This document shows, in pieces, positions 29,290 through 35,906 of a stretch of 64,000 nt of DNA (the stretch's first letter is position 1; every line of letters starts with the position of its first letter). Position numbers and translations under genes: made by a program. The DNA is taken from assembly GCA_004022145.1 (NCBI GenBank), contig RCNU01000002.1, one strand, 5' to 3'. This DNA comes from Paecilomyces variotii. Taxonomy: Eukaryota. The notes beneath the pieces are model-generated. The model did not search any database. It saw only the letters and a program-made list of their open reading frames with translations, and was not told the origin of the DNA.

Positions 29290-30526
29290 CATACACAAAG
29301 CTGCCTGCGGTGACAATGACTACCGCCATGACCCTCCCTATATCCCCTTTCCTTTCCTTCCGTCTTTCACCTTCAATACCCAGATGCCGCAATAAGGCGC
29401 GCACTTCTCTTTGTTTCGTCATTTGACTGTCACAGCGACACAGCATTGCATGTAATGCATCATGATTGAGCCGCATTTTTGAGCGCGTTGGGCCTCTCTA
29501 TTCGAATTGCATGACCCTGGCCGGATGCATAAAGGCAGGGAGTCTAGGAGTTTTTGGTGTCTGATTTCGGTCCTATTGTTTACGGGTCGAGCAGGAGCGG
29601 AGCATAAAAAGTTACGGACGTCCCCCTTGGCTTTACTTTTACAAGCATCTTGGGCAGGATTTACGAGATGAAGATACACGATACGGAAAGCATCAACGTA
29701 GTGCCGGGCGCGCTACACTGCATTGATTTATTTCTCGGTACATCTTTTTTTTTTCTTCTTTCTTTCTTTCTTCTTTCCTGGCGTTTCCCGACCGATGCCG
29801 CGGGAGGTATCTGGAGGCCGTTTTATCTGAATCTGGGTGCGGCTGCTTGCATGTAGTGTAAGTGAAGCCATGTTTTAGACTAGGGCTTAAAAAGCAACAT
29901 TTGCTCTCTGGCATTATCCTGTTGATGTGGATTTTGTTTTCTCTTTATTTGCAAATAAATCCCGTAGATCAGATAGACCCTTTCAGGTATGAAATTTCCC
30001 CAATGATCAGATGAATTAGAGTATTACCTGCAGGAACTTGCAGGAACCCCGCACTCCTTGACGCTGAATAATACAACTCGATGCTGCGTGCATTAGAGCG
30101 TTGTTGATTCTCTGCTGAGTACGTACAGATGGTAATTATCTCTTCCAACTTTCATTGAGAGTATAACTTACGAAGCCGACGTTTTCTCTAGATTCGATGC
30201 GCATATTCACTTGTTATCTACGGTGCTGCAGGTTTGTTCCTATGATTATTTCGTCCGATATAGGTATATCAATGATATACGATTCTTTGAAAAGGGATAT
30301 GGTCTTTTGTTTCTATCTGAATGGATTTTATGGCCACGTGACAGTGATCCTGTCATGAAGCCCGGGGAATAATTAAATGAGAAAGGAATTCGTCAGGCGA
30401 ATGCTCCAATTTCCTCATGCCAAAAAAAGACCAGAGGTCTCGAGTGATTTATAGGTTGAGAGAAGAAGAAAAGGAAAACAACTAGCTAGAAAACAAATTT
30501 GATAGCTGTCATTTTTCTTCTTTCAA

Positions 30527-30958
30527 TTATGCGGAGTGCTCCTTGATGGCAGCCTCGAGAGCGGGAGGGTTGGCACCGACAACCTCAGCGACGAGTTGGC
30601 CGTTCTTGTAGACGTGGAAGGTAGGCATGGCACGGACACCAATGTCGGCAGCGACGTCGGACAGCTGGTCAACGTCGACCTTGTAGAAGGTGGCGTTGGG
30701 GTACTTCTCGCTGAACTCCTCGACCTTGGGAGCGATGGCCTTGCAAGGGCCGCACCAGGTGGCGAAGAAGTCGACAACGGCGACGCCCTGGCCGGTCTTC
30801 TCGGTGAACTCAGCCTTGCTAGAGAGATTGTTAACTGACCGATCTTCTCATCTCCGCACAATGACTTCACTCCACGCCTCATCGAGAGTGGGTAGTCGGG
30901 GTCATCTATGATGGTAGGAAAAGCAGAGAACTCACCTGGAAACGTTGTGGACACCCAT
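30527..30958 (-). CDS. trxA: Thioredoxin, AUG-initiated cytosolic form, exons 30958-30936 and 30818-30527
   Basis: MGVHNVS|SKAEF...[17 protein letters not shown]...FYKVDVD...GVRAMPTF...[23 protein letters not shown] active site. Confidence 0.95.
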
Positions 30959-31135
30959 TTTGGCGATTGTGGATCGGAATTGAGGAGAGGGAGTAGTGGA
31001 GAAAGCTCGCTGGGAAGCCGACGGAGTCTTCAGAAAACGCGCGGTAGTCGCTGGCGAAGCAGATTTCGCAGCTGTCAAGCCGGTTGAGAACCTGGCGGTT
31101 GAAGAAAGAGACGGAAGGAGGCGAAGGGAGGCCAC
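30959..31135 (-). CDS. Putative GUG-initiated 59-aa mitochondrial presequence in frame with thioredoxin
   Basis: Open frame contiguous with the Trx ATG. It starts at CACC-GTG-G, contains no D/E, is rich in S/T/A/R/K/L and has a QRAFSTT cleavage-like motif. There is an in-frame TGA further upstream and no ATG. Confidence 0.7.
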
Positions 31136-31222
31136 GGTGAATGACTTGTTGGCGGGAAGTAGAGACTGATCACGGTGAGTTCAAGATGCGGGAGATTCTA
31201 CGGCGGAGGGTGGGGGATGGGC

Positions 31223-31228
31223 TTTATA
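31223..31228 (-). promoter_or_regulatory. TATA box (TATAAA) of the thioredoxin gene
   Basis: Minus-strand TATAAA about 90 nt upstream of the GTG, within a pyrimidine-rich minus-strand tract. Confidence 0.5.
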
Positions 31229-31847
31229 AGGGGAGAGGGGCAGCAACAAAATGACGTTGGGTTGGTGGAACGGGAGGCGCTATGGTATGGCTGGCTCGGG
31301 AAGACTAGAGTAGAGGGGAGGGAGGATGAATAATGATTGATTTTCAAACAAAACACTCTTCTTCTTCTCTTTTCTCCTGTTCTCTGGTGCGACTCCAGGG
31401 CTAATGGATCATCCAGAGGGCTAGATTGCACTCTCGGGGTCTGATAGACTGCTTTGCAATACAATTGCAGACGTGCAAAGACTCGGGAGTGCTCGAAACG
31501 ACGCGAACATATGGATGGATCGGCTTACCTAAGAAGAAGTTGATATGTGAGACCTGGAGAGAATCCAAGGCAATTGGACAGAGTTAGAGTAAAGCGTGGT
31601 GGACTAGAGTAACTCGAGCAATGAAAATCGATAAGCAATACGAAGTTATTCGAAGGAAAAGAAAGACAGTCAATAATGGAAGGGCAGAACCCGACGGGAT
31701 GACGTGCTCGGCTTACCAATCGCAGGCGGTCTAGAGTCTCGGGGTTCCAATCATTAACTAATCGTTAGTTAGTCTCTCTGGACTCTGGACTCTGGATCTG
31801 CTACGAAGGATCATTAATTATTAAAAACACTATTAGATCTAATCTAA

Positions 31848-33353: not shown

Positions 33354-35906
33354 TCAGAACTTGGACCCAGTAGGATCAGAGCGGGCTTCCGCCCCAGAAC
33401 TGGGTGATTTAGAATCCATCGACGCCCGGATATCCAGCAACTTTGCGCTTCCAGCGCTGACATGGCGAACGTGTCCTCTTCCGTAATCGACACTCGTCGC
33501 ACGTTGGATTTCCGCTTCTTCCTGTTCTCCTTCTTCTTCGTCCACAGGGCTGTTATCTCCCGAGACGGATAAGACCTCCGCGCTCTGGGCAGTGGGCACA
33601 TTTTGGACATGATCGAGAAGAAGTCCTGCTTTGGATTTGGGTCGATTGGATGGCCGGATTACAGTTGGCCGTCGACCGATACCGATATGCCATGTCTCCG
33701 CCGGCTCTACCTCAGGCTCGGGTTTTTGCATGGGGAGACTATCGCTCTCCCTATCACTATCGGCACCCATCGCACTGCTACTCGCCCTACGCGCACCGGC
33801 AAGAGAATCCCGGCATTCTTCGTGGCTAGGCGTCAGCCTGGCGAGATCTTCATCGCCAACGATATCGTCAGCTTCTCTGGATTCGGCATAACCTTCGAGC
33901 TTATTCCCACTGGAGGCAACACTGTGTCGAACGGGGCTGTTGGCGTGCTGCGAAATACGACGCAGGAATTTGCCGGACATCCAAGATCCTTCCGAGTCAA
34001 CGGACGCAAGAGAACGTGACAGGAGAGCGCTGTCCGGCCGCGTTTCGACGCCACTTTCCCAGGAACGGTGTCGACCGGCTGATCGCCCAGGAATGGGTCG
34101 ACCGATCGTTTGCTCGAGATCGTCGTGGAAAGAAGCCTGCTCCGGGGAGGGCATATCTGGAATGGTTTCAGGAATATCAGGTGACTGCAACCGAGACTCC
34201 GGAGGTGAAATCGGAAAGTCACCCAGGTGCTCTGTGAACTTGGATTGCGAGCGTTTGACCGTGCCGACACGCAGGAAACTTCTCTGCACCATTCCAGGTG
34301 AAGTCCCCGTGACTGACGGAGGAGCTCTCGAGAAGGACTCTCGCGATGTGTTGGAGAATTCGGAAGGCGCGCGTTGAGCACGATCCCAAGAGCCTCTCTT
34401 GAGGCGAGAGCTACCGCGGCGGAAGAAGGTCGACCATCCGTTCATACGCTTGCCGCTGTTGTCCGATGGGCGTCTTTCATGATCGATCGTCCTAGAGCGG
34501 TCTGATATCGACTCCGAAGAAAACCCAGGATGCTGCGACGTACTCGTTCCACTGGGATCCTTTGTAACGGGCGAGGGACAAGGAGAAATACTGCTCCGCG
34601 AGATCTGCATATCTTGGGACAAAGCCATGCTGTCTCTCTGGGCCATCTTTTCGGCACGGATGGAACTGTCATCCAAGGTCCCAATGACATGCACGCTTTC
34701 CAGAGAAGCACGATTGCTTTTTGGCAAGCGACCATCGTTCGAGGGACCTCGCAGCCACGAACCAGATTGCTGAGAAGACGAACCAGCCTTGGCCCCGGAA
34801 TCGTGCTCATCTTGATCACGCGAGACTGATGCTCTGTGTGTGTCGAGAACGCTGCGTCCGCGGCGGTCTTCAGTCCCCTGTTCGCGATCATCCGAAGGTC
34901 CAGATTGTTCTTCTCGCCGACGCTCTTGCTCTCGTTGACGCTCAGCCCTGCGCTGCAACCTGCGCTGCAGCCTTTCCTGGTCAGCAATACGCTTCTTTTC
35001 CTTCCGACGGCGATCCCGTTCCAGGAGTTCCCTCAGAGCTCCAGCATCCAGATCGTCGGCCAGTTCGTCGATTCTCTTTTTCGGGTTGAGACTTTCCTCC
35101 GGGATGGTCGCCTGTTTATTTGAGGCCACGGACGGTCCCTGGCTCCTGGGAGTTTCGTATCGGGGCGGCTCACTGTACCGAATCGCAGGTCGTGGGGTCC
35201 AGGCAGCAAATGTGTTGACCTTGAAGGTATACGATTCGGACCCATCTGTCATGGAGGAACCCGGCGAGTCTCGAACAGGAAGGCTCAGGTCTGAAGCATG
35301 GCGATCTGAACGGCTGATTACACTACCAACCCTCCTCGTATCGCACGAGCTGGACACGACATTCGATGCGCCAGTACGTCTCGGAATGTTCACAGGAGAT
35401 GAAGACATGGCCCGGATCTCCTGCTCCCTTGAAATCTGTTCTATCTTCCGCTTGCTGAGTCTCTTCTTCAAAACTGAGGGTCCGGTGCTGCTGGGCTTCC
35501 TTCGCAACACTGATGCGCTCCTCGAGACAGACAGTTGATCTTGACCGATGCTGGAGTGCGATGCCTGTTCAAGGCCGTAGGGACGCTGACCAATGGGTTC
35601 AGTTTTCGCTTTCATGGGAGGATGATTCGGTTCGATGAACCTCGTCTGCGGAGTGGTTTTTGCTCGACGAGGAGAAGGCGCATCTTGCCCTGGGATGGAG
35701 GATTCGTCTGGAGTTGCTGAAGCACGGTTCTTGCGACGCTTGGATTTCTTGCGAGAAGGCTTCCGTTTGGGTGAGATGGCAGCCTCTTGAGGAGGTGCAA
35801 GGATAGACTCTGGTTCCTGAGCAGCGTACATCTTCTCCACTGTTTCAGGTCCCGCCAGCGGAGTGCTGGACCGCCTACCCTTGCGACCAAAAGGCCATAT
35901 TGCCAT
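33354..35906 (-). CDS. Uncharacterised 850-aa Ser/Arg-rich protein with central coiled coil
   Basis: Long intronless ORF starting MAIWPFGRK, with a charged coiled coil (ELADDLDAGALRELLERDRRRKEKKR) and motifs SLASVDSEGSWMSGK and HVSAGSAKLLDI. Confidence 0.85.
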   Translation of the reverse strand: MAIWPFGRKGRRSSTPLAGPETVEKMYAAQEPESILAPPQEAAISPKRKPSRKKSKRRKNRASATPDESSIPGQDAPSPRRAKTTPQTRFIEPNHPPMKAKTEPIGQRPYGLEQASHSSIGQDQLSVSRSASVLRRKPSSTGPSVLKKRLSKRKIEQISREQEIRAMSSSPVNIPRRTGASNVVSSSCDTRRVGSVISRSDRHASDLSLPVRDSPGSSMTDGSESYTFKVNTFAAWTPRPAIRYSEPPRYETPRSQGPSVASNKQATIPEESLNPKKRIDELADDLDAGALRELLERDRRRKEKKRIADQERLQRRLQRRAERQREQERRREEQSGPSDDREQGTEDRRGRSVLDTHRASVSRDQDEHDSGAKAGSSSQQSGSWLRGPSNDGRLPKSNRASLESVHVIGTLDDSSIRAEKMAQRDSMALSQDMQISRSSISPCPSPVTKDPSGTSTSQHPGFSSESISDRSRTIDHERRPSDNSGKRMNGWSTFFRRGSSRLKRGSWDRAQRAPSEFSNTSRESFSRAPPSVTGTSPGMVQRSFLRVGTVKRSQSKFTEHLGDFPISPPESRLQSPDIPETIPDMPSPEQASFHDDLEQTIGRPIPGRSAGRHRSWESGVETRPDSALLSRSLASVDSEGSWMSGKFLRRISQHANSPVRHSVASSGNKLEGYAESREADDIVGDEDLARLTPSHEECRDSLAGARRASSSAMGADSDRESDSLPMQKPEPEVEPAETWHIGIGRRPTVIRPSNRPKSKAGLLLDHVQNVPTAQSAEVLSVSGDNSPVDEEEGEQEEAEIQRATSVDYGRGHVRHVSAGSAKLLDIRASMDSKSPSSGAEARSDPTGSKF

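Follow-up and report, generated by a model that had tools for sequence, protein, structure and literature searches.

A thioredoxin gene of Paecilomyces variotii with a presequence-like open leader and a candidate GUG start

Can a single fungal thioredoxin gene serve both the cytosol and the mitochondria when only one AUG start is left to it? This question is raised by the gene of the main 104-aa thioredoxin of Paecilomyces variotii, located on the minus strand of a 64,000-nucleotide stretch of contig RCNU01000002.1 (assembly GCA_004022145.1; the whole stretch is referred to below as the window). Above the annotated ATG (Met2) the reading frame remains open and leads up to a GTG, and an earlier note on this DNA had interpreted the intervening codons as a hidden mitochondrial presequence, translated from that GTG. 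Its description of the sequence was correct in every item, i.e. the open frame, the GTG at 31135, the 59 residues with no Asp or Glu and eight Lys or Arg, the R-A-F-S-T-T motif, the TGA 16 codons upstream and the TATAAA about 90 nt upstream. The elements of the leader, at positions of the window, are as follows.

31181-31183, minus strand: in-frame TGA, 16 codons above the GTG (read directly)
31133-31135, minus strand: GTG, candidate near-cognate start, ACC GTG G (A at -3, G at +4), context ttcACCGTGGcc
30959-31135, minus strand: presequence-like extension of 59 codons, in frame with the thioredoxin ATG (from translation)
30992-31009, minus strand: R-A-F-S-T-T, a motif of the R-x-F-S type, 17 residues before Met2 (from comparison with Rasamsonia)
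30956-30958, minus strand: Met2 ATG of thioredoxin, the annotated start of the 104-aa form, context aaAATGGgt (read directly)

The frame above the Met2 ATG is free of stops for 74 codons, up to the TGA at 31183-31181, and translation from GTG 31135 yields VASLRLLPSLSSTARFSTGLTAAKSASPATTARFLKTPSASQRAFSTTPSPQFRSTIAK, followed by MGVHNVS. The 59 residues of this extension comprise no Asp or Glu, eight Lys or Arg, 21 Ser or Thr and ten Ala. From TGA 31183 to ATG 30958 the frame is devoid of ATG, a point on which the sequence and the RNA and DNA contigs agree, and the gene thus does not have two in-frame AUG starts. GTG 31135 is the first usable in-frame near-cognate codon past the TGA, has a short leader ahead of it and a good context, and no stop intervenes before the main AUG, which is the layout of the DualNCC genes discussed below. 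The leader of about 230 nt (31188-30959) contains no ATG in any frame.

In the six frames of the 64-kb window, 293 of 127,648 windows of 59 codons (0.23%, in 27 clusters) are free of stops and of Asp and Glu and hold at least eight Lys or Arg. Openness of the frame alone is not beyond chance; openness and composition combined are rare, and the presequence-like composition claimed in the earlier note therefore stands. The extension also carries a motif of the processing-peptidase type, which consists of an Arg at -2 or -3, an aromatic residue and then Ser or Ala. This is R-A-F-S-T-T, which we take to be an R-3 type site of the mitochondrial processing peptidase; the related long proteins described below have R/K-x-F-S/H.

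Transcription of the extension was examined with contigs of four runs from four studies, aligned to 30300-31500. Two features of the region above the GTG are relevant here.

31175-31188, minus strand: zone at or above which the mRNA 5' end lies (from RNA contig ends)
31223-31228, minus strand: TATAAA box, 88-93 nt above the GTG (read directly)

A spliced X2 contig of 805 nt ends at 31175 and an X6 contig extends to 31188. As the RNA contigs reach these positions, the GTG lies within the mRNA, at least 40-53 nt inside it, and the TATAAA is located 35-50 nt above the furthest contig ends; the extension is transcribed, as had been predicted. The intron joint 30818/30936 (117 nt skipped; CT..AC on the plus strand) was found in X1, X2 and X6, i.e. 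in three studies. Past about 31200 the RNA depth is 0 in X2 and X6 and drops from about 44,000 to 384 in X1, which is no proof of a transcription start at this place, as contigs give no exact mRNA 5' end. Neither positions 31133-31135 nor the TGA showed a variant in any of the four runs, all of which have GTG and not ATG, so that a mis-called ATG, considered in the earlier note as a possible source of error, is excluded.

Two copies of the 8-mer TCACCGTG are present in the leader, at 31171-31178 and 31133-31140 (minus strand). The upper copy holds a further GTG (31173, A at -3), not in frame with thioredoxin, from which an upstream reading frame of 32 codons would extend to about 31075 and overlap GTG 31135. 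With the furthest RNA contig ends only 2-15 nt away, this codon is maybe too close to the cap for use.

The origin of the leader is indicated by its similarity to the N-termini of two thioredoxins that begin with an ATG, those of Rasamsonia byssochlamydoides (P0075) and R. emersonii (P0124). The word TVASLR is common to the extension and both Rasamsonia proteins, as is the pattern R-x-F-S-x-T...F-R-x-T. TVASLR is the longest exact word shared, and shuffles matched its length 41 times in 5000 against R. byssochlamydoides and 33 times in 5000 against R. emersonii; the two other leader frames share with Rasamsonia words of only 3-4 residues. When the extensions were anchored at Met2 and compared without gaps over the last 17 residues, identity was 7/17 in one comparison (reached in 40 of 20,000 shuffles) and 5/17 in the other (840 of 20,000). 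The block RAFSTTPSPQFRST of the window and RNFSSTSASRFRPT of Rasamsonia stand at equal distance from Met2, and both Rasamsonia species have R-N-F-S-S-T at the 17-residue spacing of R-A-F-S-T-T. A BLASTP comparison of the 81-aa leader plus exon 1 with P0075 gave E 3e-4, in an alignment that takes in the true coding MGV. The Rasamsonia presequence (residues 1-60), used as a query, found only itself.

The upper boundary of this similarity is also informative. GTG 31135 aligns to an internal Val in Rasamsonia, whose own ATG is located 8 or 11 codons higher. Identity begins one codon before the GTG, at a Thr, the five residues above it mismatch, and the TGA falls in this upstream stretch. The distance from the Val to Met2 is 59 aa in the window and 45-48 aa in Rasamsonia. 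On this comparison a chance origin of the Rasamsonia matches is unlikely, and we conclude that the leader descends from a translated, coding presequence that lost its original start codon (ATG1).

The same architecture recurs in more distant homologs. A search with the exon-2 protein gave 7972 matches at E<=0.001 among 7999 scored candidates, and the best 120 were examined. Fifteen of these 120 are long forms of 139-165 aa, started by an ATG, with an acid-poor, R/S/T-rich extension, and in all 15 an internal Met lies at most ten residues before a G/S-V-H/Q-N motif, at the point taken as the start in the short forms. Sources of the long forms are Rasamsonia byssochlamydoides, Macroventuria, Cucurbitaria, Neocucurbitaria and Melanomma among the Pleosporales, further Cladosporium, Aureobasidium, Sclerotinia, a lichen fungus and metagenomes; a Myxozyma protein is laid out in the same way but has another junction. 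That the presequences of 15 out of the 120 best homologs end at an internal Met is a new observation of this analysis. The window resembles the ATG-started fungal long forms (Rasamsonia P0075 and P0124 and those of Pleosporales, Cladosporium, Aureobasidium and Sclerotinia) in its thioredoxin domain with WCGPC, in an acid-free, R/S/T-rich extension, and in an R-x-F-S/H motif shortly before the internal Met, which is followed by G-V-H-N. In contrast to them, it lacks ATG1, a TGA stands in frame above the extension, and its first usable start is the GTG that corresponds to the internal Val of Rasamsonia.

Databases treat these proteins unevenly. The R. emersonii thioredoxin is annotated twice, with 104 aa (P0064) and with 160 aa (P0124), and the metagenome short forms P0045 and P0058 are exact or near-exact C-terminal parts of the long forms P0059 and P0067. 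All the Paecilomyces annotations seen, including those of P. lecythidis and of the 85%-identical P. variotii No. 5, are of 104 aa, in agreement with the expectation of the earlier note that ATG-only annotation would miss a long form. Thus, the start-codon annotation of this thioredoxin family is inconsistent across databases.

A metagenome scan with exon 2, in which 80 loci were kept (best identity 58-63%), revealed no close relative among them, none exceeding 63% identity. Three of the 80 loci carry the extension (L006, L010 and L031). The contig of L031 ends before any ATG1, whereas L006 and L010 have an ATG1, with T at its -3 position, and the interval from there to ATG2 is free of ATG in all frames; ATG2 has A at -3 and G at +4 in L006 and L031. 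A motif match in L028 proved to be noise. By analogy, the layout of L006 and L010 fits what would be expected of leaky scanning between two starts, as in fungal dual-localized genes (PMC7049704). Because the extension is homologous to ATG-initiated presequences with a conserved second Met at the start of the short form, a design with two starts and two compartments appears plausible for this gene family.

Additional information comes from X7, an unspliced contig in a food-fermentation metatranscriptome, which represents a strain or sister lineage diverged by about 2%. In the extension it shows one change in 177 nt, which is synonymous (CCC>CCT), and in exon 2 two changes in 252 nt, both synonymous. 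The intron (5/117) and the 3' untranslated region (UTR; 7/164) together have 12 changes in 281 nt, three of them indels, and the difference between the extension and these two regions is significant (Fisher p 0.02). Above the GTG there is one change, which, read in the frame of the extension, would turn Ser into Phe. The changes of X7 cluster in the intron, the 3' UTR and the promoter and include a 2-nt deletion at 31233, adjoining the TATA box.

Based on these observations, we hypothesize that the ancestral gene was a two-start, two-compartment thioredoxin, that AUG1 was lost, and that a minor mitochondrial form may now be initiated at GUG 31135 while the bulk of the protein, which is cytosolic, starts at Met2; we consider the chances of this reading to be about even. 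In the ancestor, ATG1 would have given the presequence plus thioredoxin for the mitochondrial matrix, and ATG2 (Met2) the cytosolic thioredoxin. In the present lineage ATG1 would have disappeared, with an in-frame TGA now above, and the remaining presequence would have been kept in frame in the approximately 230-nt leader of an abundant mRNA. A small share of the scanning ribosomes might then start at the GUG (A-3, G+4) and produce M-ASLRLLPSL..., a precursor that would be imported and cleaved near R-A-F/S-T-T. Most ribosomes would leak past the GUG and, because the leader lacks an AUG in any frame, would start at Met2 and produce the cytosolic form. The GUG might represent a pre-adapted site, as the old presequence has a conserved Thr-Val-Ala at this point (ACN GUN GCN).

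In favor of translation, no acidic residue is encoded and the two conserved blocks, separated by 40 codons, have stayed in one frame. In Pezizomycotina, near-cognate codons with A-3 and G+4 do initiate (PMC5487733), and in the dual-localized fungal aminoacyl-tRNA synthetase (aaRS) genes weak AUG and near-cognate starts have been swapped many times (PMC7049704). A bolder proposal, which we make tentatively and hold to fall somewhat short of an even chance, is that matrix thioredoxin comes only from the GUG-initiated minor isoform, the start having moved to ACC GUG GCC, and that the whole M-G-V-H-N clade of Pezizomycotina would follow the one-gene, two-start, two-compartment design, with short and long annotations each hiding one isoform.

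The points collected in this and the next paragraph weigh against translation from the GUG. The position-specific statistics given above (the TVASLR word and the Met2-anchored identity) were picked after the alignment had been viewed. A plain local-alignment shuffle test between the extensions of the window and of R. byssochlamydoides, both of which are S/T/A/R-rich, was not significant (443 of 5000 shuffles), and against the 14 other long forms the observed score was reached by 11-419 of 1000 shuffles. The 81-aa leader found no match with HMMER among 1.84 billion representatives, and a word-index search of longer proteins with the leader gave 194 candidates, none at E<=0.01. In a quick tree of the thioredoxin domain (101 columns; 12 of the 120 rows, with fewer than 24 residues before WCxPC, dropped; many forks unresolved) the window protein, together with P0001 and P0073 (support 98), falls on the side of Aspergillus TrxA (support 87) and not with Rasamsonia, and orthology therefore rests on the N-terminus only. 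The maximum hydrophobic moment in an 11-residue window, 0.63, is within the range of the ATG-started homologs (0.57-0.77) but is reached by 17% of shuffles, and that in an 18-residue window (0.30) by 68%. Folding of 31190-31040 revealed no RNA structure downstream of the GTG beyond that of shuffles (z -0.13). An ATG-free leader also occurs in 40% of dinucleotide shuffles, i.e. the depletion is not significant. Finally, T-V-A are internal residues conserved in Rasamsonia (ACN GTN GCN), and the A-3 and G+4 of the GTG are there because the codons of this Thr-Val-Ala bring them along; the CACC-GTG-G context is thus weaker evidence than the earlier note assumed. Its dual-targeting interpretation retains the mRNA cover, the composition and the homology to ATG-initiated presequences, and draws less support from the context of the GTG.

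The strongest alternative, less probable in our view but to be taken seriously, is that the leader is a relic, left by an isoform that no longer exists: with ATG1 the gene would have lost its mitochondrial targeting, the former presequence would be a plain 5' UTR that has not yet decayed, and only the 104-aa cytosolic protein would be made. The absence of ATG1 and the TGA that closes the frame are what this explanation predicts, and the good context of the GTG would be an inheritance from T-V-A. Codon usage points in the same direction, as the GC content at third codon positions is 0.53 in the extension versus 0.81 in exon 2. The leader is also open in its +1 frame, for about 70 codons over the same stretch, so that stops are rare anyway in this C/T-rich sequence. 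The +1 frame (30959-31173, minus strand) reads SVSTSRQQVIHRGLPSPP..., includes acidic residues and has, at most, words of three in common with the Rasamsonia presequences; its openness seems to follow from the abundance of C and T. The mitochondrial Trx3 of yeast is dispensable (PMC4851219), so an outright loss of mitochondrial thioredoxin would be tolerable, and canid PRDX5 offers a precedent in which mitochondrial targeting was lost through loss of a start codon (PMC3759418). Moreover, 5' UTRs may be conserved for other reasons, and in X7 the extension does not differ significantly from the promoter in divergence (p 0.43).

What speaks against a relic is the state of the frame. Two blocks 40 codons apart match Rasamsonia in one frame, across different families of Eurotiales, 59 codons are without an acidic residue, and the sole X7 change in the extension is synonymous, as compared with 12 changes in 281 nt, three of them indels, in the intron and 3' UTR. 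A neutral stretch of 177 nt would soon gain frameshifts, hence the loss would have to be recent. The 104-aa annotations in all Paecilomyces seen hint at an older loss, but only weakly, because R. emersonii, which has ATG1, is also annotated with 104 aa. If the loss is young, a relic accounts for all the sequence facts.

It is improbable, in our estimation, that the extension is translated from some other start, i.e. from another in-frame near-cognate codon (TTG 31078, CTG 31033 or AAG 31147) or from a rare longer or alternatively spliced transcript with an upstream ATG. Such codons do exist, and a low-depth X1 contig (384, versus about 22,000-44,000) runs from 31139 to beyond 31500. However, TTG 31078 (ggcTTGa) and CTG 31033 (tttCTGa) lack the combination of A or G at -3 with G at +4 and would lose the conserved N-terminal TVASLR block, and AAG is reported to be a very poor start codon. 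An upstream start without splicing would run into the in-frame TGA, the known intron is the only joint in the four runs, and the low-depth X1 contig, which is collinear with the genome, could stem from DNA or from read-through. That an ordinary 5' UTR reads as a presequence by accident is the least credible of the explanations and very improbable: two of the three frames are open, and C/T-rich DNA easily yields S/T/A/R-rich translations (the 27 clusters in 64 kb), but the leader has position-specific matches to two ATG-initiated Rasamsonia presequences, 15 of the 120 best homologs have the same architecture, and the composition occurs in only 0.23% of windows.

The remaining parts of the gene are those of an ordinary thioredoxin.

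30936-30958, minus strand: coding part of exon 1 of the short form, MGVHNVS plus 2 nt (from sequence and RNA contigs)
30819-30935, minus strand: intron of 117 nt, GT..AG (RNA joint 30818/30936)
30527-30818, minus strand: exon 2, thioredoxin domain and TAA stop (TAA at 30529-30527; from Pfam)
30743-30757, minus strand: WCGPC active site, residues 29-33 of the 104-aa spliced product
30304-30526, minus strand: 3' UTR to the likely poly(A) site (from a single X6 contig)

Exon 2 matches the Pfam profile PF00085 (Thioredoxin) with E 2.1e-28 and 98.8 bits (cutoff 23.5), and the 104-aa spliced product has a single thioredoxin domain with WCGPC. It is identical to P0121, which is annotated in several P. 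variotii assemblies. In one X6 contig a loose end of poly-T precedes 30304, which points to polyadenylation about 223 nt past the stop codon. The upstream neighbor, separated from the thioredoxin gene by about 2 kb of intergenic DNA, is an uninterrupted open reading frame of 850 aa (33354-35906, minus strand), rich in Ser, Arg and Pro and apparently of low complexity or disordered.

Mitochondrial isoforms with non-AUG starts are known from S. cerevisiae, in which ALA1 and GRS1 produce them. The mitochondrial thioredoxin of this yeast is encoded by a separate gene, TRX3, unlike in the reading proposed here for the window. A parallel in design is that of the DualNCC aaRS genes (Wallace et al. 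2020, PMC7049704), which share with the window an upstream in-frame near-cognate codon, a presequence, no AUG between the two starts and leaky scanning, presumed in our case; in both cases the upstream start of relatives is an AUG. These genes are experimentally proven and their mitochondrial function is essential, whereas the window offers a candidate from sequence and RNA whose function is perhaps dispensable. Yeast Glr1 (PMC4851219) is likewise one gene with a long mitochondrial and a short cytosolic form, as we suggest for thioredoxin, but both of its starts are AUG. In canid PRDX5 (PMC3759418) two ancestral starts and a targeting sequence were followed by loss of the upstream start in one lineage, as here; that isoform is reported as abolished, whereas in the window the rescue by a near-cognate codon is a candidate. 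For N. crassa TRX3 (NCU06556), which we liken to the long forms by description only, a mitochondrial signal of 35 aa has been predicted (bioRxiv 10.1101/2025.04.24.650474).

In the literature searched we found no report of a fungal thioredoxin whose synthesis begins at two starts or at a codon other than AUG. The word thioredoxin does not appear in the main texts of PMC5487733, PMC6582344, PMC7049704 and PMC11974929, although their supplementary gene lists may name the family. The mechanism is of a known kind, that of the non-AUG mitochondrial isoforms, among which thioredoxin would be new.

If the GUG form is made, P. variotii has a mitochondrial thioredoxin that is absent from its annotation and that ATG-only models of 104 aa miss. 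The second-Met pattern in 15 of the 120 best homologs, together with the 104-aa and 160-aa records of R. emersonii, indicates that the localization of fungal thioredoxins is annotated inconsistently, and it may commonly be dual. As an instance of a well-known mechanism, this gene might constitute a clean natural test of the replacement of an AUG start by a near-cognate one.

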